Shown piece by piece: positions 15,946-46,860 of a stretch of 64,000 nt of DNA (within the stretch, counting starts at the first letter, position 1; every line of letters begins with the position of its first letter). The notes below the pieces were generated by a model. That model worked only from the letters and a program-made list of their open reading frames with translations. It had not been told where the DNA came from and did no database searches. The translations under genes were made by a program, and so were the position numbers. The stretch is taken from NCBI GenBank assembly GCA_905235805.1, contig CAJOMV010000084.1, forward strand, positions 5,354 through 69,353. The letters are read 5' to 3'. The DNA comes from an uncultured Ruminiclostridium sp. (GTDB lineage: Bacteria > Bacillota > Clostridia > Oscillospirales > Ruminococcaceae).

Positions 15946-15984
15946 AAATAACCCGTCATTTCCACGGAAATGACGGGTTATTTT

Positions 15985-15986
<2 letters not shown>
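15944..15986. terminator. Bidirectional intrinsic terminator
   Basis: aaaaataacccgtcatttcc-ac-ggaaatgacgggttattttt inverted repeat between convergent genes. Confidence 0.85.
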
Positions 15987-17241
<1,255 letters not shown>

Positions 17242-17526
17242 ATTGTTGTATGCTCCTCTCTTATAATTCAAAAATTACCGACTACTATAATATCACAATG
17301 TCTCCGGTTTGTCAAGTCTCCGCTAACCGCAACATATTGTACTTTCGGATCAACTCCGCAACAAGATATGCTGTTGACGTATATGTGGAAAAATCACCAA
17401 AACCTATATGAACAGTTTGTGAAAAAGGGAGAAAATTAACAAATATACGGAAAGGGGTTAAAAAAAGAACATTTTTGTGTTATAATATAGTATGAGTATG
17501 CAGTTTTAAGAAAGTGAGGTGAGGAC

Positions 17527-34602: not shown

Positions 34603-34631
34603 AAAAACTCCCCCGTGAGGGGGAGTTTTTG
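34601..34631. terminator. Bidirectional terminator
   Basis: aaaaactcccc-cgtga-ggggagttttt. Confidence 0.85.
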
Positions 34632-36221
34632 TTATACTATCCTGCTATCGTTGAACCATATCTCCGTCACGTCATCGGGGGATATGCTTTCCGGCAGTGC
34701 GCAGTGAATGAAAGTCCTGCCGCTTGCGACCGGCTGACCGAGTGAGTTATAGCTGCTCGTTAATGTCATCTCGGAGCCGTCCGCGAACACGAGCTTTATG
34801 TCGAGACCGCCGAGGTCACGGAAAACAGTGTTCGCAGGCTCATACGAGAAATCAGTATAGGGTATCTCGGAGATGACCGCGGAAAATTCCCTCTCGGAGA
34901 ACCTGATGATATCGACAGGGTAGAGGTTGCCGAGGGAATCGGGGACTGTGGAATTATCAGGTATGATAGTACGGATATCCGCGTCCTCCGGTACATAAGC
35001 GGTGAAGGTGAAAGCTTCGCCCGGTATCTGCGGGTGATTTGCTCCGCGTGTCAGCGGGAATGCCGTAAGAGTAACGGTTATTTCGTCCGCTGGCTCATAG
35101 CGGTGGAAATTCCACACTGTGGACAGTCTGTATGTTTCCTCGGGCTGATGCAACACACCGCCGGACAGGATACCGACATTCTCTTCGTCAATGCTCTCGC
35201 TCAGCGGCAGTATAGAGTCACGCTCGTCATCAAACGCACCGATGAAGTCCGTCGAGATATACCCGCTGTCCTCGTCGAGCAGTATGTCATACGCGAGCCG
35301 CAGATTTATACCGTCAAATGTATAACCTGTGATGTGTACCCGGTAGCCGTCGCAGCTGAACCACTCGTCAGCCTTCGTATAGAGGTCGGAGGAACGGATA
35401 TCCAAAATTGTCATGTGTCTGATGAACTCGTCTATCGCCTCGCCCCAGATACGCACAAGTCCGACGGAGATGTTGCGCACATCGGAGATACTGATATGCT
35501 CCGGCAGGTCTGCAATTACAATGAAGTCCCCGTCAATACTGAATCCCGAATCGGTGACCTCGGCGAAAACGGAGTCTCCCTCCCACATCTCAAGCTCAAC
35601 AGGCGCGGTGGCGGCGGCATTCACAAGCTCCGTATTGTCCGGGGTGAGCGCGGGATCCCTATACCGCAGTATTATCTGTGTCCCGGTGAATATCATTTCC
35701 TCGATATGTGCTTTATATTTCAGCTTTTTGGTCTCTTCGTCCAGTGTGAACGTAACTTCCGTCATTTTGTCAAAGGCAAAGTTATAGTTGAACTTGCCGC
35801 TGTCGGTGACCGCAGATAGCTTTGCGGTGATACCGCCCGCAGTCTCCTCCTCGGGGACGGTTTCGGTGATATCCTCGGTGACCGCCTCCGTCACGATATC
35901 CTCGGCAGCCGAGTACGCGGCACCGCCGCCCTCCTTCAGCGGTGTGAATTCTATCCCGCCGCCGTAAGCGTTCCCCGCGAAGAAGCCTATGCCGAGAGCC
36001 GCGGCAATTCCCGCAGCTATCCCGCCTATCAGCGGAGCACGGCTGCCCTTGTGTGCAGTCCCGCCTGTGGGAAGCTCCCTCGCGTCCAGTCTTGTTACAT
36101 TTTCGTTTTTCATTTTTTCCGCCTTTCCCAGTATCTTTGACATTGCTGTCTGTGTGTCGGAAAAGGGGTATTTTTCGTATGCGTCCGAATATGCTCTGTC
36201 AAATATTTCCTTGATATCCAT
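34632..36221 (-). CDS. Putative anti-sigma factor A1 (single TM, large ectodomain)
   Basis: Overlaps 3' end of ECF gene; short N-terminal domain, TM (APLIGGIAAGIAAALGIGFF), about 430-aa C-terminal region; paralog of 40917-43235. Confidence 0.75.
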   Translation of the reverse strand: MDIKEIFDRAYSDAYEKYPFSDTQTAMSKILGKAEKMKNENVTRLDARELPTGGTAHKGSRAPLIGGIAAGIAAALGIGFFAGNAYGGGIEFTPLKEGGGAAYSAAEDIVTEAVTEDITETVPEEETAGGITAKLSAVTDSGKFNYNFAFDKMTEVTFTLDEETKKLKYKAHIEEMIFTGTQIILRYRDPALTPDNTELVNAAATAPVELEMWEGDSVFAEVTDSGFSIDGDFIVIADLPEHISISDVRNISVGLVRIWGEAIDEFIRHMTILDIRSSDLYTKADEWFSCDGYRVHITGYTFDGINLRLAYDILLDEDSGYISTDFIGAFDDERDSILPLSESIDEENVGILSGGVLHQPEETYRLSTVWNFHRYEPADEITVTLTAFPLTRGANHPQIPGEAFTFTAYVPEDADIRTIIPDNSTVPDSLGNLYPVDIIRFSEREFSAVISEIPYTDFSYEPANTVFRDLGGLDIKLVFADGSEMTLTSSYNSLGQPVASGRTFIHCALPESISPDDVTEIWFNDSRIV

Positions 36222-36708
36222 TTTCTTCTCTCTCCTTGTCTGTAAGAAGTGCACGGAGCTGTTCACGTCCCCGCATGAGCCTTGACCGCACCGAGGAGCC
36301 GCTTATCCCGAGTATCTTCGCAAGCTCCTCCACCGTATATCCCTCGCAGTAATGCATATACATCGCTATGCGTATCTTCGGGCGCAGCTTTCCGAGCAGC
36401 GCGAGTATCTCGCCGTCCTCACCGCCGTAGCTGTCCGAGCACTGCTTGTCCGCAGCGCTCTCCAGCGGAAGCGAATATCTGTACCAGTGCGACTTGAGCA
36501 CGTCCGCGCTCCTGTTTATCGCGCATCGCAGCAGCCATGCCTTCGCGTGCTCATCGCTTACAAAGCTGTTCCCGCCCGTGTAGAGCTTTAAGAACACCTC
36601 CTGTGCCACGTCGTCCGCGTCCGCGGCATTTTTCAGGCAGCAGAACGCCGCCGTGCATACCGCCTTGTAGTACATTCTCACATACCGTTCAAGCTCGTCC
36701 TCCGTCAT
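36199..36708 (-). CDS. ECF sigma factor A1
   Basis: DADDVAQEVFLKL, AWLLRCAIN (region 2), HYCEGYTVEELAKILG...VRSRLMRGR (region 4). Confidence 0.93.
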   Translation of the reverse strand: MTEDELERYVRMYYKAVCTAAFCCLKNAADADDVAQEVFLKLYTGGNSFVSDEHAKAWLLRCAINRSADVLKSHWYRYSLPLESAADKQCSDSYGGEDGEILALLGKLRPKIRIAMYMHYCEGYTVEELAKILGISGSSVRSRLMRGREQLRALLTDKEREENGYQGNI

Positions 36709-36754
36709 CGGCTCACCCCCTTTTCTGTGTTGTCGGAAAAGCGCTTTTCACTTA

Positions 36755-36784
36755 TAATACGATTCGGAAAGGAAAAGTGTTGCA
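36755..36784 (-). promoter_or_regulatory. ECF-type (likely autoregulatory) promoter A1
   Basis: TGCAAC-N17-CGTATTA on minus strand. Confidence 0.75.
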
Positions 36785-36848
36785 TTTTTTTCATTATAAC
36801 ATAAAAAAAGATTTTTTGCACATAATATCAACGAAAGGACTGATAAAA

Positions 36849-37283
36849 ATGCTTGGAAAGAATGATATCGAAATTCTCAACACCATATACAAGAACAGCC
36901 GAATGGCATACGACTGCACGAAGCAGGTAGTGGCGAAAAGCGCGGACGCAGAGCTGAACGATTATCTGAAGCGGCAGATGAAGCACTACGCCCGCAGCTG
37001 TATCGACGTGAAGAACACCCTCGCTAAGGAGGGTCACACCCCGCAGCCCGTCCCCGCTATGCAGTCTGCAATGGCGGCAATGGGCATATCCATGAAAACT
37101 ATGCGCGACCATACCGCGGGCAATATAGCGGAGCTGATGTACAACGGCACGAACATGGGCATAGTGGATATCGCACGTTCGGTGAACCACAGCAGAAACG
37201 CCTCGCAGGACACCGTCCGCAATGCCGAGACCCTGCTCAGCGAGGAAGAAAAGTACGCCGACGGCTTGAAGAAATTCCTGTAA
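36849..37283 (+). CDS. Hypothetical helical protein (possibly sporulation-related)
   Basis: GAAAGG SD before MLGKND; IAELMYNGTNMG motif; possible sigma-E-like CATAATAT upstream. Confidence 0.7.
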   Translation: MLGKNDIEILNTIYKNSRMAYDCTKQVVAKSADAELNDYLKRQMKHYARSCIDVKNTLAKEGHTPQPVPAMQSAMAAMGISMKTMRDHTAGNIAELMYNGTNMGIVDIARSVNHSRNASQDTVRNAETLLSEEEKYADGLKKFL

Positions 37284-37286
37284 ACG

Positions 37287-37321
37287 AAAAGCAGTCCCGG
37301 GTTTTCCGGAACTGCTTTTTT
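37287..37321. terminator. Bidirectional terminator
   Basis: aaaagcagtcccgg...ccggaactgctttt. Confidence 0.75.
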
Positions 37322-37326
37322 CTGTA

Positions 37327-40176
37327 TCAGAACGGGTCGTATGTGGGAATATCTCCGAGGTCAATAGGATTGCTGGTGATCGTCAGTCTGTCCTCGGGAA
37401 TATCGATCTGGTTATACTGCGCGTATTCGCGGATATAGTCGGCGTATTCCTCTCTGTCGGTGAGAACAAGGAATTTCGCGTTCGGCTCGGTGGAGCCGGG
37501 AGTTTTCAGCTTATCCCATATCACATATATACTGTCTATCTTGTAATAGACCTCGCCGCCTGTATCGTTGTGGTACATGGTCGTCTCGCGCCTGTCCCTG
37601 AAATAGGTTACGATATTGCGCACCGCTGTGAGCTGCGGCTCCTTTGTGAGTATTCTTACCAAAGAGCCGTCCGGGTAGGGTTCTCCGTTGGCATTGAGGA
37701 TATATTCGATAATAATATCGTCGGTTATCTTCCAGTAGATGCTCCACCGGTTCCCGAGCTTCACATAGTCGAGAATGCTGTCGTAGGCGGTGAGCGTCTC
37801 AAAGCTGAAACCGTTTGACGCCGCGGTTCTTGCCTCCTTACGGAATTTTTCCGCAGCGTCGCCCGCGCCTAGCTCCTTCAGTCTGTCGGCTATCGTGTCG
37901 TATTCGGTGAAGAGGTTGTATGTCTCCGTGCCGGAATATACGCCGCAGTCAAAGGCTACATTGTATATATCGACCTGTGAGGTGTTCTCGTAAGCAAGCG
38001 CGCCCTCCCCGAGGTCTCTGAGTTCTGTCACAGGGAGCCAGTCTGCCTTTTCCTGCTCCGGTGTAACGAGCCTGTACAGCCCCTCCGCTCCGGGGACTTC
38101 CTCTGTTATAGCCGACTTTATTTTGTCAAGCTTACCGTCGTTGATTATTTTCAGATATTCCTCGTCGGTATCGAAATCCTTTGTCATTACTGCCATAACG
38201 TGCGGGAAATAGCGTGTTTCATCATAAGGTGTGTTTGTGCTCCTGTGTCTGTCCCAAAGCAGTTCGATGATCTTACGGAACTTGGTATGCGTTGCGTCGA
38301 GCTTATAAACTCTGAATGATTTGCCGCTGTCGTATGTGCTGAGAACATAATTCTCGTTGAGGTAGTAGTATGTCCCGCGCAGCGGCTCATTGTCGAGGAA
38401 CCCGGCAGCCGTGACCTCGATCGCCCTCCCGGATATAAGCTTTTCGGGAATGAGCGCGTCCCCCTCGCAGTACTGCTTTATCACCTGACGGAAATAATCG
38501 TTATCGACATACATATCCTCGGTTTCTTTCAGGAATGTTTCCGCCGTTATATCAAAAGTCTCCATAGAGTACACGTTACCGCCTATGACGGCAAGGCTGT
38601 ACCACGGCGGATTTTCTCCGGGATTCGGGTCGTGCCTGTAAATTGACTGTGTCTGTATCTCGAAGGTCGCCGTGACAAGCTCGTTGTAGTTCGGTATCAC
38701 TGTGAGATCGTCCACGGTGAGGACGTCCTCGGGAGTACCGTCCTCGGCGGGGATTTCATAATAGGTTTCAGTGTCTATCAACGCATCGGGAGCCGCTATG
38801 AAGACCTCGCGGTTCACGAAGTCGAAGCACAGCATAGTTCCGTTTATGCTGTCTGTAAGGTCAAAGGGGTGGTTCTCAAGATAGAAGAGGGAATGGGAGA
38901 GCATAACGCCGCCGTCGGTATCAACGGCGTCTGTGGTCCCGGTAAACACGATTTCCAGCGGAGCAGCTATCGAGTCCGTGGGTCCCGCGTCCTCATCTAT
39001 AAGCCAGAACCGCGTGTCGAAGCCCTCCCCATAGGTGCCGTAGGCTGTCCTGATGACGCGGTATTCCTTGTCATCTTTGCGGATGGTGTACAGACCGAAG
39101 TAATCGTCGAGCCTGTCTGCGCGGAAGGAGTGGATATACAGGTGACCATTATTATCGCCTATATCGATATCCGGGTGACGGTTCACGGGAATGTCAGAAT
39201 ATATCCTTGTACCGCCCGGTTCCGGTATCACTACATTGAGGGAGCCATACATAATGTCCGGGTCGTCCCTGTCCTTCATCAGGTACTTGCCGATCAGATA
39301 GATGTCGAGGCTGGCGTCACCGTAGGGTACGGACAGCTTTTTGAAATACGCCCAGTCCAGCCGTGTGTGCACTTCGTCACCGGGGTCGTAGTAAGGAATG
39401 ATACCCTGTTCATCATATTCGTCGTAGTCTTTCAGTGTCCCGACACCCTCGCTCTGCATTTCCCCTACGATATAGGACGGGTACGGCAAAGTCTCCGCCG
39501 GCTGCGTGTCCGATATACCGAGCAGCCGTTCTATCTCCGTGACATCTTCCTGCGAGAGAACATACTCGAATTCCATGACGAACACGGCTACATCGGGCTC
39601 CTTCTTCCTGTACCAGTCGAGTATCGTCCGCATGGATTCCGTGCTTATCTCCGGCTGAGCAAGTATCTCGTCGTGCTCCTTATACCTGTCGGTGCCGCTC
39701 ATGAGACGGAATTTCCAGAACCCGGACGGGTCCTTCGACGGGTATACCTCCAGCCCCTTGAATGTCGAGCACTCAAAGTATTCGGGGTACTTATCCTGCA
39801 GGTAATAGGAATTTGTGTCTTTCCCGAGGTCGTAGGTGGAAGTGACCGCGGGAGTTACGGCTTCGGAAGGTGTCGTGCCGGTACCGGTGGCATTTCCTCC
39901 GGTCTCTATCTTTCCCGCGCCGAGCTTGTTTATCACGAGTGCCGCCGCGGTTATCATCAGCGCCGCAGCAAGCCCCGACAGCACCGCCATGTGCACTGGA
40001 AACTTCTTCTTTTCCGGCTTCGGCACGGGCTTCACCTCATATGCGCCGCCCTGCTGCGCTGTTATCAGGTCATCTATGAGCAGGGAGGGCTCTTTATCGC
40101 TGCTCATGGAATTTTCTATATACTTTTCGTTGACCTTTCCGATAGCGTCCAGTAATATGTCCTTCTTATCCTTCAC
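37327..40176 (-). CDS. Putative anti-sigma factor B1 (single TM, about 860-aa ectodomain)
   Basis: GTG start overlaps sigma TGA; N-terminal LLDAIGKVNEKYI, one TM, homology to 43856-46105. Confidence 0.75.
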   Translation of the reverse strand: MKDKKDILLDAIGKVNEKYIENSMSSDKEPSLLIDDLITAQQGGAYEVKPVPKPEKKKFPVHMAVLSGLAAALMITAAALVINKLGAGKIETGGNATGTGTTPSEAVTPAVTSTYDLGKDTNSYYLQDKYPEYFECSTFKGLEVYPSKDPSGFWKFRLMSGTDRYKEHDEILAQPEISTESMRTILDWYRKKEPDVAVFVMEFEYVLSQEDVTEIERLLGISDTQPAETLPYPSYIVGEMQSEGVGTLKDYDEYDEQGIIPYYDPGDEVHTRLDWAYFKKLSVPYGDASLDIYLIGKYLMKDRDDPDIMYGSLNVVIPEPGGTRIYSDIPVNRHPDIDIGDNNGHLYIHSFRADRLDDYFGLYTIRKDDKEYRVIRTAYGTYGEGFDTRFWLIDEDAGPTDSIAAPLEIVFTGTTDAVDTDGGVMLSHSLFYLENHPFDLTDSINGTMLCFDFVNREVFIAAPDALIDTETYYEIPAEDGTPEDVLTVDDLTVIPNYNELVTATFEIQTQSIYRHDPNPGENPPWYSLAVIGGNVYSMETFDITAETFLKETEDMYVDNDYFRQVIKQYCEGDALIPEKLISGRAIEVTAAGFLDNEPLRGTYYYLNENYVLSTYDSGKSFRVYKLDATHTKFRKIIELLWDRHRSTNTPYDETRYFPHVMAVMTKDFDTDEEYLKIINDGKLDKIKSAITEEVPGAEGLYRLVTPEQEKADWLPVTELRDLGEGALAYENTSQVDIYNVAFDCGVYSGTETYNLFTEYDTIADRLKELGAGDAAEKFRKEARTAASNGFSFETLTAYDSILDYVKLGNRWSIYWKITDDIIIEYILNANGEPYPDGSLVRILTKEPQLTAVRNIVTYFRDRRETTMYHNDTGGEVYYKIDSIYVIWDKLKTPGSTEPNAKFLVLTDREEYADYIREYAQYNQIDIPEDRLTITSNPIDLGDIPTYDPF

Positions 40177-40733
40177 AGCCCGATACCCTCCTTTTCCAGA
40201 TATTTTTTCAGCTTTTCACGTATCCTGTGCAGCGTGGTCTTGACCTTCTCCTCGCTTATCCCCATTTCCTCCGCTATCTCCGTGACGCTGCGGAAATGGT
40301 AATAGCGTTTCATGAACATCTTCTGTTTTTCCGCGCCGAGAGTGGCAAGAAATGCGTTGAGCGTCCGCACAAGCTCCCTGTCGTCGAATTCCTGCTCCAC
40401 CGTGGTATCGTCCGCGATACACTCCGCTATCTCGTCATAGATGACCTCTGCGTTTCCTCCGCCCCGTTTCATTGTAGTGTGTCCCCTCCTTCTGTTCAGC
40501 GCGATATTCCGCGCTATCGCTGACAGGAACGCTCCGAATTTCTTCGGGCGCTGCGGGGGTATGGTATTCCACACCTTCAGGTATGTATCGTTCACACATT
40601 CCTCGCTGTCCTCTCTGCTGCCGAGAATGCTGTATGTTATCCCTCTACAGTAGGAGCCGTACTTCTTGTCCGTCTCCGAAATGGCGTCCTCGGAACGCGC
40701 GAAATATTTATCTATTATCTCATTGTCCGTCAT
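40173..40733 (-). CDS. ECF sigma factor B1
   Basis: RSEDAISETDKKYG, EDSEECVNDTYLKVW, region 4 SVTEIAEEMG...VKTTLHRIR. Confidence 0.93.
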   Translation of the reverse strand: MTDNEIIDKYFARSEDAISETDKKYGSYCRGITYSILGSREDSEECVNDTYLKVWNTIPPQRPKKFGAFLSAIARNIALNRRRGHTTMKRGGGNAEVIYDEIAECIADDTTVEQEFDDRELVRTLNAFLATLGAEKQKMFMKRYYHFRSVTEIAEEMGISEEKVKTTLHRIREKLKKYLEKEGIGL

Positions 40734-40787
40734 TTTCTTCCACTCCCTGTTCAGGTTTTTTGCCCGGCAAATTATCCCTTTCACCTA

Positions 40788-40818
40788 TACAGACACCGGT
40801 TAACGCTCCGAGGTTACA
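40788..40818 (-). promoter_or_regulatory. ECF-type promoter B1
   Basis: TGTAAC-N17-TGTCTGTA on minus strand. Confidence 0.72.
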
Positions 40819-40871
40819 CTTTTTTCAAAAAAATTATAACATTTTTCGGCATACAATGCAATAACAAAATT

Positions 40872-40903
40872 TTCCCCCTTACAGAAAACTCCGTAAGGGG
40901 GAA
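40872..40903 (-). terminator. Intrinsic terminator
   Basis: ttcccccttac...gtaagggggaa after anti-sigma A2. Confidence 0.8.
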
Positions 40904-40916
40904 GCGGGATAAAATA

Positions 40917-43235
40917 TTATGAAGTGATATACAGAATATCGGGCATGAGGGTGATGCAGTCATTCTCGTCAAAGCGGAAGTCTATGTACATAATGCTGTG
41001 ACCCTCGCCGTCTGTGAAGCGCCAGCTGTAGGAGTTGTCCGCTTCGTCGTAGAAGCAGGTTCCGCCGAGGATATCCATTACCTCGGACAGGGAAGAGCCC
41101 TTGTGTATTCTCCCGCCCAGCAGCGACATCTGTTCCTCGGTAAGCTCATCGGGCTTTACAGTGAGGAACAAACCGTCGTAGTAATGCTTGTCGCTCTCAA
41201 AGTTATGAATGAAGTCGATAACTACGGAAGTCTCACCGTTTATGGGTTCCGTAGGCTCGTAGTCGAGAGGAAGCTTGATATCATTGTACACGGTGCAGAG
41301 TTCATCGAAGGTCAGCCCCTCCGGCACAACGCACTCCATTGCGTCGGGCAGGGGATCGAACATTTCCTCACGGCTCAGCAGCTCAGAGCCGATGACTACA
41401 GTGTCCCCCAGCTTCACCCACTGGATATTGCCGCGCCATGTGGAGGTATCGAAGAAGTAGTACACCTGCACCTTGCCGCCGTTGCGGTAGTTGGTGCTGT
41501 GAGGTTTTGTCAGACCCAGGCGTTCGAGCTCTGTGCCCTTGTACATATCAAGCGGTAACTCCGCGCTCGGTGTGAGCACTCGTCCGTCAACCATTTCCAC
41601 GGTCATCTCCGCCACGGGAGCCTCAAAGTCGCCACCGAAAATGCCTTCCTCTGTGTCGGTATAAACGCACTCGATTATGCCGTCACCGATGTATATTTGC
41701 TCGAGCGGAGCTTCCGCGCCGTTCGGCTGGGTTATGAGAGTACCCTTCGGCACAGCCATTTCGGCGGTGATAGCGGGGTACTTGTTCGTGACTTCCACGG
41801 TGAGGTGGGGGTTCTGCTCGATAAGCTCTCTGCGCTCCTCGAGATTTTCGGGAAGGTCTATCTCTGAACTGCACCAGAGATAAGCAAGGTCGAGCGAATA
41901 AACGGGCTCGGGCATGATATAGCTTATCTTTTCACCTTTTCTTATGCAGGAATTCTCCTCCCGGAACACTGTTTCGGTTCCCTGCTGCCAGTCGGCAACA
42001 CTCACGTCTTCGCTGAACTCAAATCCATAGGAGGTATCGGGGGAATTCGGATGTGAATTGAATTTTTGGCGTACCGTATATGTCATATCCAGCTTCAGCC
42101 CGTCGAAGGCAAGGTCGGTGATGACGACCTGCCAATCGCCGTAATCGAGGACATTACCGTCCGGGAGAGCCATGCTGCGCGGCACGAATGCCGTCACATC
42201 GTTCAGGTCGTAGATAGCCTCACGGGGGTCAAATTCCAGTATGCCCGCGGTCTTTTCCGCGTTTGTCGGAGTGAAGGTGCCCTTGCCGAGCGTTACGAAA
42301 TAGCCCTCGCTATACAGCGCGTCGAGGTAGCAGTCCTGCAGCGCCTTGAGGTAATCGGGGTCGCTGATATCGAGGTATTCTATCCTTACCGCGTCATGGG
42401 TTACGGTAGTCTTTCCGAGCTCGAATCTGCCGTCCGGGTCGGTATAGCCGTACTTCACGCCGGTCATCTTGCCGTCCGTGGTGTACATTGTGATACGCTT
42501 ATCCGCGTCGGCAGGGTAGGGGGCGTTATTGTCCTTTTCGCCCGCGTAGCGCGCATAGCTGTCCTCGAGGTCCATGAACCAGAATTCACACTCCGTCATT
42601 AACGACTTTGTCGTTCCGTCAAAGTGCACCGAGCAGGAATTATCGTCGGACATCAGTGAGTGGTAATCGCCGTTTGCCCAGCCCTCACCGAACATCGGGG
42701 ATACGCGGTTGTAGTCTATGCCGGGGAAATTCTTCACATCGGTATTTCCTGTGAAGATCAGGTCATACTCCATGCTGAAGTTGATCCCGTCGAACTGCCA
42801 CCACAGCACCTTCACTGTAACATCACCGAGGTCGAACACGTTTTCCTTCTCTTCCGACAGCTCCGTGCTCATATCATCGTATACCGGGGCAGCGGTAGTC
42901 TGCTCCGCATGGTACGCGGCATTCCCGCCCTCGGACAGCGGCACGAACTGCGGCAGCTTCACGAAGCCAGTCCCGAGCGCCGTTATCCCGAGAGCCGCGG
43001 CTGCCGTAAGCGATATCCCCGCCACAAGGGGAGCACGGCTCTTTCGCTTCTCACTCGGCATATCGCCTGTGGGCAGGTCGCGCGCGTCTATTCTCCGCAC
43101 GTTTCCGTTATTTTTCTCTTTCTCCATTTTATCAGCCCTTTCAAACACCTTTTCGCATATAGCGTCATTGTCGTAAGAGTGGTATTTCTGATAAAGACCG
43201 GAGAAGGTATCGTCAAACATCTTTCTGTAATCCAT
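40917..43235 (-). CDS. Putative anti-sigma factor A2 (single TM, large ectodomain)
   Basis: Overlaps ECF gene; shares RxDAR(E/D)LPTG, SRAPL and FxPLxEGGxAAY motifs with A1. Confidence 0.75.
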   Translation of the reverse strand: MDYRKMFDDTFSGLYQKYHSYDNDAICEKVFERADKMEKEKNNGNVRRIDARDLPTGDMPSEKRKSRAPLVAGISLTAAAALGITALGTGFVKLPQFVPLSEGGNAAYHAEQTTAAPVYDDMSTELSEEKENVFDLGDVTVKVLWWQFDGINFSMEYDLIFTGNTDVKNFPGIDYNRVSPMFGEGWANGDYHSLMSDDNSCSVHFDGTTKSLMTECEFWFMDLEDSYARYAGEKDNNAPYPADADKRITMYTTDGKMTGVKYGYTDPDGRFELGKTTVTHDAVRIEYLDISDPDYLKALQDCYLDALYSEGYFVTLGKGTFTPTNAEKTAGILEFDPREAIYDLNDVTAFVPRSMALPDGNVLDYGDWQVVITDLAFDGLKLDMTYTVRQKFNSHPNSPDTSYGFEFSEDVSVADWQQGTETVFREENSCIRKGEKISYIMPEPVYSLDLAYLWCSSEIDLPENLEERRELIEQNPHLTVEVTNKYPAITAEMAVPKGTLITQPNGAEAPLEQIYIGDGIIECVYTDTEEGIFGGDFEAPVAEMTVEMVDGRVLTPSAELPLDMYKGTELERLGLTKPHSTNYRNGGKVQVYYFFDTSTWRGNIQWVKLGDTVVIGSELLSREEMFDPLPDAMECVVPEGLTFDELCTVYNDIKLPLDYEPTEPINGETSVVIDFIHNFESDKHYYDGLFLTVKPDELTEEQMSLLGGRIHKGSSLSEVMDILGGTCFYDEADNSYSWRFTDGEGHSIMYIDFRFDENDCITLMPDILYITS

Positions 43236-43722
43236 TTTCATGACCTTCCTTTCTTTCCTCTGACAGTATCTCGCCGAGCTGCTTTCGCCCGCGCACCAGC
43301 CGGAGCTTCACCGCGGACTCCTTTATCCCGAGCATATCAGCTATCTCCTTTACCGTATAGCCCTCGTAGTAGTGCATATACAGCGTGACGCGGAGCTTCT
43401 TCCCGAGCTTCATTATCTCGGGCAGGAGGCTCTCCCCGGGGTCGTTTCCGGGCGCTGCTACCTCCTCGGCTGCGGAGAGCGGCTCGGAGAATCTGTACCA
43501 GTGTGACCGCAGTATGTCTCTGCTCCTGTTTATCGCGCACCGCAGGAGCCACGCCTTGACGTGCTCGTCGCTCGCAAAGCCCCCGGTGTAGGTATATAAC
43601 GCGAGGAAAACGTCCTGCGTGACGTCGTCCGCGTCGCTGACGTTCTTCACACAGCACAGCGCGGTCGCCCACACGCTCTCCTTGAACAGCCTTACATACC
43701 GTTCAAGCTCGATCTCTGTCAT
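43213..43722 (-). CDS. ECF sigma factor A2
   Basis: Close paralog of A1 (ELERYVR, DADDVTQDVF, AWLLRCAINRS, YMHYYEGYTV). Confidence 0.93.
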   Translation of the reverse strand: MTEIELERYVRLFKESVWATALCCVKNVSDADDVTQDVFLALYTYTGGFASDEHVKAWLLRCAINRSRDILRSHWYRFSEPLSAAEEVAAPGNDPGESLLPEIMKLGKKLRVTLYMHYYEGYTVKEIADMLGIKESAVKLRLVRGRKQLGEILSEERKEGHENGLQKDV

Positions 43723-43761
43723 CATACCCCTCTCTTTCTTTCTGAAAGGTCCTTTCAATAG

Positions 43762-43791
43762 TAATACGTTTGAGCGGGTCGAAAAGTTACA
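43762..43791 (-). promoter_or_regulatory. ECF-type promoter A2
   Basis: TGTAAC-N17-CGTATTA on minus strand. Confidence 0.75.
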
Positions 43792-43820
43792 TTTTTTATA
43801 TTAGATTTATCGGAAAAAAT

Positions 43821-43850
43821 CAATGACCGCACAGGAATGTACGGTCATTG
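43821..43850 (-). terminator. Intrinsic terminator
   Basis: caatgaccgcac...gtacggtcattg after anti-sigma B2. Confidence 0.7.
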
Positions 43851-43855
43851 TGTTT

Positions 43856-46105
43856 TTACTGTGCTATTTCCCAGTAATACGGCGTGAAGTCGAAGCGCTT
43901 GATTATTTTTTCCAGGAGGCTTTCCGAGGCAGAGAACGGCTTCGGGGTGATGCGCAGCATCGGTCTGTCTCCGCCGTCATCAAAGGTAACGTTCACGAGG
44001 TCGAGCCTGTCAATGATATATTGCTCCCCGCTCTCGTGATATACGGGGTGCAGTCTGAACCACAGAGCTTCGTTTCGTACTATCGTCATCTGTCCGTCCT
44101 GCCGGTATACCTCATATCCCGCGATCCCGCCGTTCTCATCGGGCAGAGTTTCTATTATATACCAGAGCCCGCCGCCGTAGAATGAGTAGAATTTGTGTCC
44201 CTGCTTGTCGTATGGCATAAGAACGGGATCGAATATATCCTCGTATGGGGTGATCTCGGTAAGCTCCGCGAGATCGATATTTTTCAGCTCCTCGATATTG
44301 TTCAGCTCAGCGAATTTCTGAAGATCCGTGATGACGTGTACCGACATTTCCCGGTAGGCTTTGTTGTCACACGCGAGGAAGCTGTGACCGTACCAGTTGT
44401 AGGAGTCAACGGCAGTCTCATTACCGTGCGCGTCGGTATTGATATTGCCTATGGGCATATATGCCGCACGCTCCTCCTCGGGTGTGATCACGGAGATGTG
44501 CTCCATATTCCCGATGTTATCGGAAAGGTATGCGGCGAGCTCGTAGGTGCCTTCGCGCACTATCACCTCGAGGCCGAAGTCATAGTCCTCGCCGTACATC
44601 ATGGTCGTGACGAACACGATACTCATATCCCCGTAGGTGTCGGGCTGCTCAGCGGCTTTCTCCCACAGCAGCTCCAGCGCTTTTCTGATGTTCAGCGCCC
44701 GGGCGCTCCATGCGTACTTTCCGTCAAGCCTCTGCAAGAAACGCGCGCCGTTCCCCCGGCCGTCATTGTCAACGGAGATCATATAGTTGTCGCCGATGTA
44801 GTAGAAGTCGGTGTCAGTTATCGGCTCGTTATCGAAGTAGCCGCGCACCTCCGCTTTTTGCAGCAGGGTGAGGTATTCCGTTTGCAGCGCTCCGTCACTG
44901 TCGGATACCGCCTTAATACCGTTTATCAGCTCGGTGATAGTGTCCTCGCGGCTGTATGAGGAATCCCGCGCCTCTTTGAGCGCTCTGTCGTATGAGAACC
45001 GCCCGTAGCTGATGTACTCATACACCGTTCCGTTCGCGCAGACGAGCATATCAAGTGCGTCACCCTCGCCGGCGGCGGGCAGTCTGTCGGAGAGGAATTT
45101 CTCCTGCACCGGCAGAGCGGTGACGGTGCTGTTCTCGTGCAGCTCCGAGGGTCCCGCCACGGGGTCGTGAGGCTCTTCGGGCTTCTCGGGAGGCTGGGTA
45201 CCCTTGTAGGCGTAAATGAAGATGTTCTCGAAGTCGAACCCGAAGGTGATCTCCCGCTTGAGGTCTATATAATAATTCGCTATTATGGTGTTCGTACCCG
45301 AAAGCTCCATACCCACGGTGTTGCCCTCGGAGAGAATGGACTTGTCGATATTCAGGTTGGTGAATATCTGCAATTCACCGTCGGAGTTTATCCCATAGAA
45401 TGTGGTGTACATTCCGCCTGTCTTCGCGGCGTACTGTGTGATGAACAGGGGATGGGTGCCGTTTTCATCGTACATGAATTCCACGCTTGCCCGTAGCCAG
45501 TCCATGCTCCTTCCGCCGTTGTCGTACTTAACGCCCTTCGCGGGCATAATTGGCAGCGGGTCTCCGGGGAAGAAGTACATCGTTCCTATCTCGTTCCCCG
45601 TGTTCATATCGGTGACTACAGCGTAAGGGTCACATATCAGCATATACGGGTCGTCCTCAGATATCTGATACACATTGTCCGCGAGCAGCTCCACGCGGTA
45701 TTCAAGCCCCGAGTCGCCGTCTCCGCTCTCTATTGTGAGCAGCAGCACATTGTCCCGACCGGTGCCGTCGTCCTCGCCGTTCTCCGGGAGCACGGGCAGG
45801 TCTTCATAGTCGCTGTACGCAGCGCCGCGGAAGTCCGTTCTGTCGGGGTCAACATAGTCATAGCGGATATACCGCCACAGCATGACCGCGCCCGTTATCA
45901 CGAGAGCAGCGGCTGCAATTCCGATGACGGCGCGTCTGATATAGTACGCCTTGCTCACGGTTTCGTGCTCCACGGTGACAAAGGAGAGCCTGTGGCGCTC
46001 TGTCCCGAACAGGGAACGCCGCTGCTTCGGCATGGTTGAGGTTATGAGCTTTTCGTCCTGTATGCTCCCAATTGCGCGGAGCAGCTTGTCTTCCGGTGTC
46101 CTCAC
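43856..46105 (-). CDS. Putative anti-sigma factor B2 (single TM, large ectodomain)
   Basis: GTG overlaps sigma TGA; LLRAIGSIQDEKLI N-terminus; TM AVIGIAAAALVITGAVMLW. Confidence 0.75.
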   Translation of the reverse strand: MRTPEDKLLRAIGSIQDEKLITSTMPKQRRSLFGTERHRLSFVTVEHETVSKAYYIRRAVIGIAAAALVITGAVMLWRYIRYDYVDPDRTDFRGAAYSDYEDLPVLPENGEDDGTGRDNVLLLTIESGDGDSGLEYRVELLADNVYQISEDDPYMLICDPYAVVTDMNTGNEIGTMYFFPGDPLPIMPAKGVKYDNGGRSMDWLRASVEFMYDENGTHPLFITQYAAKTGGMYTTFYGINSDGELQIFTNLNIDKSILSEGNTVGMELSGTNTIIANYYIDLKREITFGFDFENIFIYAYKGTQPPEKPEEPHDPVAGPSELHENSTVTALPVQEKFLSDRLPAAGEGDALDMLVCANGTVYEYISYGRFSYDRALKEARDSSYSREDTITELINGIKAVSDSDGALQTEYLTLLQKAEVRGYFDNEPITDTDFYYIGDNYMISVDNDGRGNGARFLQRLDGKYAWSARALNIRKALELLWEKAAEQPDTYGDMSIVFVTTMMYGEDYDFGLEVIVREGTYELAAYLSDNIGNMEHISVITPEEERAAYMPIGNINTDAHGNETAVDSYNWYGHSFLACDNKAYREMSVHVITDLQKFAELNNIEELKNIDLAELTEITPYEDIFDPVLMPYDKQGHKFYSFYGGGLWYIIETLPDENGGIAGYEVYRQDGQMTIVRNEALWFRLHPVYHESGEQYIIDRLDLVNVTFDDGGDRPMLRITPKPFSASESLLEKIIKRFDFTPYYWEIAQ

Positions 46106-46662
46106 AGCTTTATTCCCTCCTTTTCGAGATAATCCTTCAGCTTCGCGCGGGTGCGGCTGAGCGTCATCTTTACCTTGCTTTCGCTCATCAGCATCTGCTC
46201 GGCTATTTCCGAGACGGTGCAGAAATGGTAATAGCGTTTCATAAAAATAATACGCTTTTCGCGCGGCAGGGAAGTCACGAACCGCTCTATCAGCCCCGCG
46301 AGCTCATGCTCGTCCGCCGCGTCCTCCACGCTCACATTCGACGGTACGCACTCCGATATCTCCTCATAAGCGAGGGTGTGGGAATGCCCTCCGCGTTTCG
46401 CCGCGGCAAACCTGTCGAGCATATCCATGGCAAGATTGCGCGCGATACGCGCGACGAACGCGCCGAGCTTTGCGGGCGTTTCCGGCGGGATAAGCTCCCA
46501 TACTCTCATATATGTGTCGTTCACGCATTCCTCGCTGTCCTCACGGTTGCCGAGGATATTGTATGTCAGGGTGCGGCAGTAGCCGCCGTATTTTCTGTCG
46601 GTCTCGGAAAGAGCGTCCTCCGACCGCGCGAAATACAGCCCGATAATGTCCTTGTCCTTCAT
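46102..46662 (-). CDS. ECF sigma factor B2
   Basis: Close paralog of B1 (YFARSEDA.SETD.KYG, EDSEECVNDTY, FMKRYYHF, YLEKEGI). Confidence 0.93.
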   Translation of the reverse strand: MKDKDIIGLYFARSEDALSETDRKYGGYCRTLTYNILGNREDSEECVNDTYMRVWELIPPETPAKLGAFVARIARNLAMDMLDRFAAAKRGGHSHTLAYEEISECVPSNVSVEDAADEHELAGLIERFVTSLPREKRIIFMKRYYHFCTVSEIAEQMLMSESKVKMTLSRTRAKLKDYLEKEGIKL

Positions 46663-46690
46663 TTTTCCCTCCCGAAAGCTGTCTTTATAT

Positions 46691-46721
46691 TACAGACGGA
46701 AAAAAGACGTGTCGCGTCACA
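46691..46721 (-). promoter_or_regulatory. ECF-type promoter B2
   Basis: TGTGAC-N17-CGTCTGTA on minus strand. Confidence 0.72.
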
Positions 46722-46860
46722 CTTTTCTGAAAAAATTTTAGCATACTGCGTGGAATATGTCAACGGCTGATATCCGATTCGATAAAAATTACAAAAAAAT
46801 ATTGAAATTATATCAATAATGTGCTATACTACTACCATAAAGCATATAAGGAGAGATAAC

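Follow-up and report, generated by a model that had tools for sequence, protein, structure and literature searches.

Four ECF sigma factor genes with overlapping membrane-partner genes in an uncultured Ruminiclostridium sp.: candidate signalling modules from two expanded families

A 64,000-nucleotide stretch of DNA from an uncultured Ruminiclostridium sp. (GenBank contig CAJOMV010000084.1, positions 5,354 to 69,353; hereafter the window) contains, at positions 34632–46721, four cassettes on the minus strand, each of which consists of an extracytoplasmic function (ECF) sigma factor gene overlapping a gene for a single-pass membrane protein. An initial annotation, made from the sequence letters, had read this array as a candidate bank of extracellular sensors in which ECF sigma factors of two alternating families (A and B) are paired with large membrane anti-sigma factors. 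The locus raises the question of whether the four pairs are signalling modules at all, and whether the array is a unit in its own right. The explanation that best accounts for the evidence as a whole, and that we regard as probable, is that the four cassettes act independently of one another, each as a signalling module made up of an ECF sigma factor and its anti-sigma factor. As a unit the array is nothing special; its cassettes look like ECF/anti-sigma modules of an ordinary type, and no new mechanism is indicated. The window represents contig C84 of a 2.43-Mb assembly in 134 contigs, with an estimated completeness of 80.7%.

Sigma factors, membrane partners and promoters

The co-oriented arrangement of four overlapping gene pairs is borne out by the listing of open reading frames (ORFs) and by the Pfam and NCBIfam matches. 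In the order of transcription, the sigma factor genes are sigB1 (46102–46662, encoding 186 aa), sigA1 (43213–43725, encoding 170 aa from the ATG at 43725, with the longest ORF extending to 43758), sigB2 (40173–40733, encoding 186 aa from the ATG at 40733, with the longest ORF extending to 40784) and sigA2 (36199–36708, encoding 169 aa). All four products contain Sigma70_r2 (PF04542) and Sigma70_r4_2 (PF08281) domains with E-values of 1e-9 to 1e-14, while region 3 is not significant, and all four pass the sigma70-ECF model TIGR02937 (64.5–89.7 bits against a cut-off of 42.9; 71.5 bits for SigB1). By their domain content, these small proteins are ECF (group 4) sigma-70 factors. As first noted from the sequence, they form two related pairs, SigB1 and SigB2 sharing 57% and SigA1 and SigA2 54% amino acid identity, against approximately 24% between the families. 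None of the specific NCBIfam ECF subfamilies (equivalogs such as SigV, SigW, SigM and SigX) is reached by any of the four; the best specific scores are 94 bits for SigA1 with NF006930 (cut-off 198) and 71 bits for family B with TIGR02989/TIGR02985 (cut-offs 124–126). The nearest solved sigma factors in a profile search are SigH, SigW (5wuq) and SigE.

Each sigma factor gene overlaps the gene of a putative anti-sigma factor, by 4 nt in family B and by 23–29 nt in family A. The partner of sigB1, asB1 (43856–46105, 749 aa), begins at a GTG whose 4-nt overlap includes the sigB1 stop, and has one transmembrane (TM) segment near residue 56 followed by an ectodomain of approximately 670 aa. The gene asA1 (40917–43241, 774 aa, TM segment near residue 70) overlaps sigA1 by 23–29 nt, asB2 (37327–40176, 949 aa) encodes a three-domain ectodomain, and asA2 (34632–36221) overlaps sigA2 by 23 nt and encodes 529 aa from the aligned ATG, or 544 aa if started at the longest GTG (36266). 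The expected size range of 530–950 aa for single-TM partners therefore holds (529–949 aa), with the addition that the array also includes a 144-aa gene on the opposite strand that had been missed. In each partner, the single hydrophobic segment lies near residues 56–77 and is preceded by K/R residues, so that the N-terminus is probably cytoplasmic and the protein of the type-II (N-in) topology. The conserved cytoplasmic part is approximately 45 aa long in family A and shorter, at approximately 25 aa, in family B. Outside these parts the partners differ greatly, as originally proposed: AsA1 and AsA2 are alike over their N-terminal 146 aa alone (39% identity), with no ectodomain homology detected, and AsB1 and AsB2 are alike over their C-terminal 420 aa alone (24% identity). 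The four partners have no sequence match to a class I anti-sigma domain (ASD, or its zinc-binding form ZAS; zf-HC2, RskA and similar, approximately 80–90 aa). Nor do they match FecR, of the trans-envelope signalling type found with polysaccharide utilization loci of Bacteroidetes, and the neighbouring genes include no TonB-dependent receptors; the organism is a sporeformer of the Gram-positive type.

The anti-sigma role of the family-A partners is supported by a structural model of one pair. SigA1 was modelled in three runs with residues 1–66 of AsA1, using alignments of 17 paralogues for each chain, and the complex obtained an interface score (ipSAE) of 0.81 in all three runs, against 0.01 for the best of three controls. 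Of 80 solved complexes, 58 reach the mark applied to this score, as do 2 of 110 mismatched pairs; since the alignments were our own, these counts are rough. At least 59% of contacts are common to the runs, and the predicted local distance difference test (pLDDT) score of the partner is at least 67. Modelled residues 3–39 of AsA1 contact SigA1 at residues 4–45 (region 2) and 98–154 (region 4), a predicted placement in which the partner is sandwiched between the two regions, as it is in ECF/anti-sigma complexes already known; this is a likeness rather than a proof. Because ECF/anti-sigma complexes have already been solved, the success of the model may itself mirror likeness to these known complexes. 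For the family-B partners, we infer an anti-sigma role from gene coupling, topology and a conserved N-terminal helix. The suggestion that these are cotranscribed membrane anti-sigma factors thus stands for all four as regards coupled single-pass partners, and for A1, in the model, as regards binding of the cognate N-terminus.

An ECF-type promoter (xGTxAC-N17-CGTAT or GTCT) precedes every sigma factor gene of the window on the same strand: TGTGAC-N17-CGTCT at 46694–46721 for B1, as read from the sequence, TGTAAC-N17-CGTAT at 43764–43791 for A1, TGTAAC-N17-TGTCT at 40791–40818 for B2, and TGCAAC-N17-CGTAT at 36757–36784 for A2. The exact B1 motif has a single intergenic occurrence in the whole genome, namely the one upstream of sigB1. 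These promoters would imply autoregulation by each sigma factor. Further upstream, three of the four cassettes have a sigma-A-like element, which for B1 is a sigma-70-like TTGACA-17-TAAAAT (46735–46763, minus strand), for B2 a sigma-A-like −10 element, TGTTATAAT, and for A2 again TGTTATAAT. Strong intrinsic terminators follow three of the four cassettes, all on the minus strand: asB1 (43821–43850, a 13-bp stem with a T tract), asA1 (40872–40903, a 14-bp stem) and asA2 (34603–34630, a 12-bp stem shared with a convergent 790-aa gene). The description of each cassette as having its own promoter and terminator is accordingly right for the promoters in all four and for a strong terminator in three.

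Among the 17 family-A paralogues of the genome, the −35 hexamers vary (TGTAAC, TGCAAC, CGCGAC, CGTGAC, CCTGAC, ACTGAC, GGTGAC, TGTCGA and others), while the −10 element is constant, (C/T)GT(A/T)TTAT. The differing −35 elements are consistent with insulation of promoters between family-A paralogues. Directly after the ECF −10 element, 14 of the 17 family-A sigma loci have a short hairpin or palindrome, TGAAAGG-N-CCTTTCA. In the window this leader feature is found as TGAAAGG-a-CCTTTCA after the A1 promoter (43741–43757, minus strand) and as GAAAAG-cg-CTTTTC after the A2 promoter (36736–36751, minus strand), and its variants (GAAAAG/CTTTTC, GAAAG/CTTTC, AGAGG/CCTCT and AAAGG/CCTTT) preserve the pairing. 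It could be a stem-loop at the 5′-end of the mRNA or an operator.

Genome-wide expansion and history of the locus

A profile built from the four window sigma factors finds approximately 35 ECF sigma genes in the genome, nearly every one of which is followed by an overlapping gene for a single-TM protein of 200–1691 aa. A maximum-likelihood tree has one core clade for each family, with 17 paralogues in A (support 99/99) and eight in B (99/92); both clades are star-like inside. The nearest paralogue of sigA1 is located on contig C28 and is 64–65% identical. Among the partners of family A, conservation is limited to approximately 50 N-terminal residues, the TM segment and a motif next to the membrane (PLKEGG..AY), and among those of family B to approximately 25 N-terminal residues. 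The four window pairs are therefore four of the approximately 26 pairs of families A and B in this genome. What the initial annotation called a parallel, uncharacterised sensor bank is right as regards the uncharacterised ectodomains, but any such bank would be spread across the genome rather than confined to this locus.

The ECF loci are moderately clustered: 11 pairs of neighbouring loci lie no more than 10 kb apart, where 3.7 would be expected (P ~4e-4). Contig C9 likewise carries four sigma genes. Arrays are present in other species as well, one genome (G002) having five sigma genes within 13 kb. In 18 congeners, the number of family-A matches ranges from 0 to 14, compared with 20 in this genome. 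A scan of contigs with the AsB2 alignment gave four loci in metagenome-assembled genomes (MAGs) from rumen or gut, with the relatives named as “uncultured Clostridia bacterium” and “Ruminiclostridium sp. Tb.RUG.179”. Two other gene types lie near ECF sigma genes more often than expected by chance, in both cases weakly: GGDEF/EAL genes within 10 kb (6 of 16 against 2.9 expected, P ~0.05) and BspA-type leucine-rich repeat genes within 10 kb (3 of 6, P ~0.08). Such GGDEF-EAL/ECF (and BspA) neighbourhoods occur on contigs C1, C28, C50, C7, C110 and C132. With enrichment this weak, a linkage of either type to the ECF cassettes was not accepted.

The genes adjoining the array in the window encode a CAP-domain protein, a carbohydrate esterase of family 2 (CE2), the 790-aa protein, a glycoside hydrolase (GH) of family 5 (GH5), a PALP enzyme, YhfC and SdpI. 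Within the array, the 144-aa gene (36849–37283, plus strand) is convergent with asB2, lies in the 618-bp gap between asB2 and sigA2, and has a weak match to the ferritin-like DUF2383 (E 4.8e-6, under the Pfam cut-off). Its orthologue in G105, the closest species found, is 91% identical, and it adjoins asB2 in the same way in G105 and at two further loci (L001 and L037). This opposite-strand gene is probably not a part of the sigma switches.

Comparison with relatives shows the locus in several different arrangements. In G105 the order is the 790-aa gene, the DUF2383-like gene, asB2-sigB2, asB1-sigB1, GH5 and PALP, with no A cassettes. A close relative (L038) has GH5, sigB1-asB1 and sigA1-asA1, and L037 has sigB2-asB2, the DUF2383-like gene and sigA2-asA2. 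The more distant L001 has only the B2 and A2 orthologues, with four genes between them (including YhfC, SdpI and a helix-turn-helix protein) and CE2 beside A2. Orthologues of sigB1 are found in G105 (81% identity) and L038, and those of sigB2 in G105 (83%) and L001 (75%). Relative to these sigma identities of 81–83%, AsB1 is only 62% and AsB2 about 45% identical between this genome and G105, while the flanking PALP and purL products are 94–96% identical. Judged from these alignments, the ectodomains diverge much faster than the sigma factors. In G105 the asB2 orthologue (contig C60; L036 1876–4119) is broken into two ORFs, of 147 and 548 aa; it may be frameshifted or a pseudogene, or the assembly may be in error here.

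An ectodomain has been replaced at L001. The sigma factor there is 73% identical to SigA2 and falls into one orthogroup with SigA2 and the L037 sigma factor (support 100/99). Its partner (15980–17350) resembles AsA2 over residues 1–138 alone (49% identity), while the rest of that protein is a full-length homologue (36% identity) of a different partner in the present genome, at C57:9458–10894. On a conserved chassis, the ectodomain has thus been exchanged for a C57-like one, by replacement or by a swap between cassettes.

The origin first proposed for the array is a duplication in tandem of a single B+A unit, after which the sensors diverged. Both halves do read B then A along the direction of transcription, and the B1-A1 adjacency is preserved in L038 and the B2-A2 adjacency in L037. 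The trees that include orthologues, however, recover neither B1+B2 nor A1+A2 as a clade, A1 grouping weakly with the C28 paralogue (80/66) and B2 weakly with other paralogues. Approximately unbiased (AU) tests neither reject nor support these clades (p 0.193 for B1+B2, p 0.205 for A1+A2). Since the clades are unrecovered and the AU tests undecided, the duplication is unproven. The arrangement in G105, where B2 and B1 adjoin with no A cassette, makes the model awkward. Also against it are the presence in L001 of B2 and A2 only, four genes apart, the DUF2383-like gene that separates B2 from A2 and has no counterpart between B1 and A1, and the undetectable homology between the AsA1 and AsA2 ectodomains. 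With star-like trees and no positive support, an origin by duplication of a B+A unit is doubtful.

Ectodomains, proposed signalling and alternative explanations

The ectodomains of the four partners are near-orphans, within the limited sensitivity of the word-indexed searches used. That of AsA1 has two homologues alone (84–89% identical) among 5.8 billion proteins, and no AsA1 orthologue of full length came up in a search of 100 congeners; that of AsA2 likewise has only two homologues (46% and 42% identity). Seven full-length homologues were found for AsB2, and for AsB1 one 63% orthologue among the 100 congeners, with C-terminal-only homologues in seven of them. A family-B partner profile searched against 1.84 billion representatives finds the C-terminal region in approximately 25 clusters, and residues 115–200 of AsB2 as a widespread module of approximately 85 aa in more than 100 clusters. 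Of ten carriers of this module that were sampled, three belong to the BlaR1-type Peptidase_M56 sensors and two bear dockerins. Compared with the PDB by Foldseek, the AsB2 model has no match at E ≤ 1e-3, while in a shape search of the Atlas only the small module was matched (TM-score 0.57–0.58 over approximately 104 aa, unnamed clusters). In a feature search of the Atlas, all leads for AsB2 were below 0.9 and the AsA1 ectodomain had no usable match; the AlphaFold2 model of AsA1 has a mean pLDDT of 43. With neither a Pfam or NCBIfam family nor a PDB fold match for the AsB2 model, the ectodomains remain as uncharacterised as they had first appeared.

Paralogous partners are more informative as to domain content. 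Twenty of them were scanned, and PASTA, Peptidase_M23 (three times), A2M and Ig-like (Big_5) domains were found. The largest, a family-B partner of 1691 aa at C1:6141–11216, contains Big_5 and alpha-2-macroglobulin domains, which is unusual for an anti-sigma candidate. In agreement with the initial annotation, carbohydrate-binding modules (CBMs) are absent from the Pfam scans of the four window partners and the 20 paralogous partners, as are GH and lectin families.

A signalling cycle for each cassette can be proposed from these elements. The sigma factor gene would be translationally coupled to the gene of a type-II single-pass membrane protein, whose conserved cytoplasmic N-terminus of approximately 45 residues would wedge between sigma regions 2 and 4 and block access to RNA polymerase, as modelled for A1 and presumed for the other three. 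The extracellular part of 450–870 aa would act as the sensor, and an extracellular cue would turn the partner into a protease substrate. Site-1 cleavage would then take place outside the membrane; for family A, the analogy with RsiV of the DUF4179 type suggests signal peptidase as a possible enzyme. Site-2 cleavage would be carried out by the RseP-like M50 protease that the genome encodes (198 bits). The freed sigma factor would transcribe from its own ECF-type promoter, with positive feedback, and from further targets. Across the genome, the two lineage-expanded families would combine a conserved chassis of sigma factor, N-terminus and TM segment with near-orphan ectodomains that diverge fast and are sometimes replaced.

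Several results weigh against reading the cassettes as independent signalling modules of this kind. Pfam (with E-values up to 10) and NCBIfam give no usable match and no known anti-sigma domain in the four partners, a profile of the family-A N-terminus finds no solved anti-sigma factor among PDB sequences, and the conserved N-terminal motif of family B is just 25 or so residues long. An intergenic scan of the genome for exact promoter motifs has matches only at the sigma genes themselves, and so offers no regulon target. Among sequencing runs, none of RNA is listed as containing this DNA, and the only DNA run, of a bioreactor metagenome, has a share of 0.13. The cue, moreover, is judged from paralogues rather than from the four window proteins: since PASTA, Peptidase_M23, A2M and Ig-like domains occur in paralogous partners, an envelope, peptidoglycan or protein-type cue is more likely than a plant glycan.

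Of the two cues first suggested, glycans and envelope stress, glycan sensing has evidence from the neighbourhood only (GH5 and CE2), and the paralogue domains fit envelope or protein cues better. The array could nevertheless be a plant-polysaccharide sensing bank, similar in function to SigI/RsgI, in which the ectodomains bind glycans and the sigma factors activate the neighbouring GH5, CE2 and GH9 genes. The GH5 gene is divergent from sigB1 and is kept beside it in G105 and L038, CE2 is near the A2 cassette here and adjoins the A2 orthologue in L001, the small AsB2 module is also carried by the two dockerin-bearing proteins, and the relatives are rumen or gut MAGs. Adjacency is, however, weak evidence in a genome with so many ECF loci, and the exact-motif scan gave no ECF promoter match ahead of GH5 or CE2. 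Together with the lack of CBM, GH or lectin families in the 24 partners scanned, and a genome with one dockerin hit and one RsgI_N hit, this makes a glycan-sensing bank unlikely. A link to a cellulosome was set aside on the same single dockerin hit. The partners may instead be mainly surface or wall proteins, with roles in remodelling or adhesion, whose anchor tethers a sigma factor; the response would then be to generic envelope damage or partner turnover, and the change in the ectodomains would come from phage or host pressure. The Peptidase_M23, PASTA and A2M domains of paralogous partners would suit such proteins, as would near-orphan ectodomains that diverge much faster than their sigma factors, yet the 17 and eight insulated sigma paralogues with differing −35 elements favour separate inputs and outputs, and the AsB2 module is common to signal transducers of the BlaR1 type. 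We regard this alternative, too, as improbable.

Independent signalling modules thus remain the preferred explanation for the four cassettes. Should the pairs work as proposed, a lineage of gut and rumen Clostridia with small genomes would lean unusually on ECF signalling, with approximately 35 ECF sigma genes in 2.4 Mb against a Firmicutes average of 7.1 per genome (PMC7826278). The lineage also illustrates how sensor domains turn over while the signalling chassis stays fixed. Its candidates for new ligand-binding folds are the orphan ectodomains and the small module that BlaR1-type sensors also carry, and the 17 related sigma factors with different −35 elements offer a natural set of possibly orthogonal switches. 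More tentatively, the families might be a diversifying receptor repertoire, in which a chassis insulated by diverged −35 elements is repeatedly refitted with fast-evolving or swapped orphan ectodomains, providing dozens of private input channels for competitors, phage, host or diet polymers, for example. If so, its logic would be nearer to that of variable receptor families than to that of classical stress ECF sigma factors.

Comparison with known systems

The closest known relatives of family A may be the anti-sigma factors of the DUF4179 type. This domain is the TM and amphipathic-helix region of RsiV, where it conceals site 1, the target of signal peptidase, as long as lysozyme is not bound, and is nearly restricted to Firmicutes (PMC6066255, PMC8844934, PMC7826278). 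DUF4179 (PF13786) has no match in AsA1 or AsA2, and weak hits in three paralogous family-A partners (E 3e-6 to 7e-3); a six-frame scan gave eight weak matches in family-A partner genes, of which one is above the cut-off, at 31.7 bits. AsA1 and AsA2 are homologous to these family-A paralogues in their N-terminal part (E 1e-8 to 1e-15), and in the Atlas the clusters structurally nearest to AsA1 are of DUF4179/DUF5643, with TM-scores of only 0.44–0.50. Family A is thus plausibly a diverged branch of DUF4179 (RsiV-type) anti-sigma factors, although the link is a weak one. To this extent, family A may map to a type of anti-sigma factor that has already been studied; no NCBIfam subfamily is reached by the sigma factors. 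The pairs resemble SigV/RsiV of Bacillus subtilis and Clostridioides difficile and BAS1627 of B. anthracis (group ECF30, with DUF4179 anti-sigma factors) in combining an ECF sigma factor with a co-transcribed single-pass anti-sigma factor in a Firmicutes-restricted system. They differ in that the window sigma factors score 52–53 bits against a SigV equivalog cut-off of 190, in ectodomains unrelated to the lysozyme-binding domain of RsiV, and in the presence of 17 family-A paralogues in this genome rather than one.

With SigW/RsiW and the other class I pairs in which regulated intramembrane proteolysis frees the sigma factor, the window pairs share the predicted placement of anti-sigma helices between sigma regions 2 and 4, a near relationship to solved SigW, promoters of the TGxAAC-N17-CGTx type and an RseP/RasP-like protease. 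Unlike in RsiW, the cytoplasmic domain is only approximately 45 residues long and has no match to zf-HC2, RsiW or another anti-sigma Pfam family, and the window ectodomains are five to 10 times larger. The SigI/RsgI sets of cellulolytic clostridia are similar in the many paralogous pairs of sigma factor and membrane anti-sigma factor, in the variety of ectodomains and in their occurrence in a fibre-associated clostridial lineage. That the window pairs are not SigI/RsgI, as had been recognised from the outset, is confirmed by the canonical region 4 of the sigma factors (Sigma70_r4_2, not SigI-C), by partners without RsgI_N, and by the lack of a CBM or GH sensor module; the sole RsgI_N match in the genome is on contig C48, separate from the array. 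A further resemblance is to M56 sensors of the BlaR1/MecR1 type, since the module at residues 115–200 of AsB2 is also extracellular on Peptidase_M56 proteins. These sensors have a different TM chassis and a different output, a zinc protease that cleaves a repressor, whereas the output proposed for the cassettes described here is the sequestration of a sigma factor.

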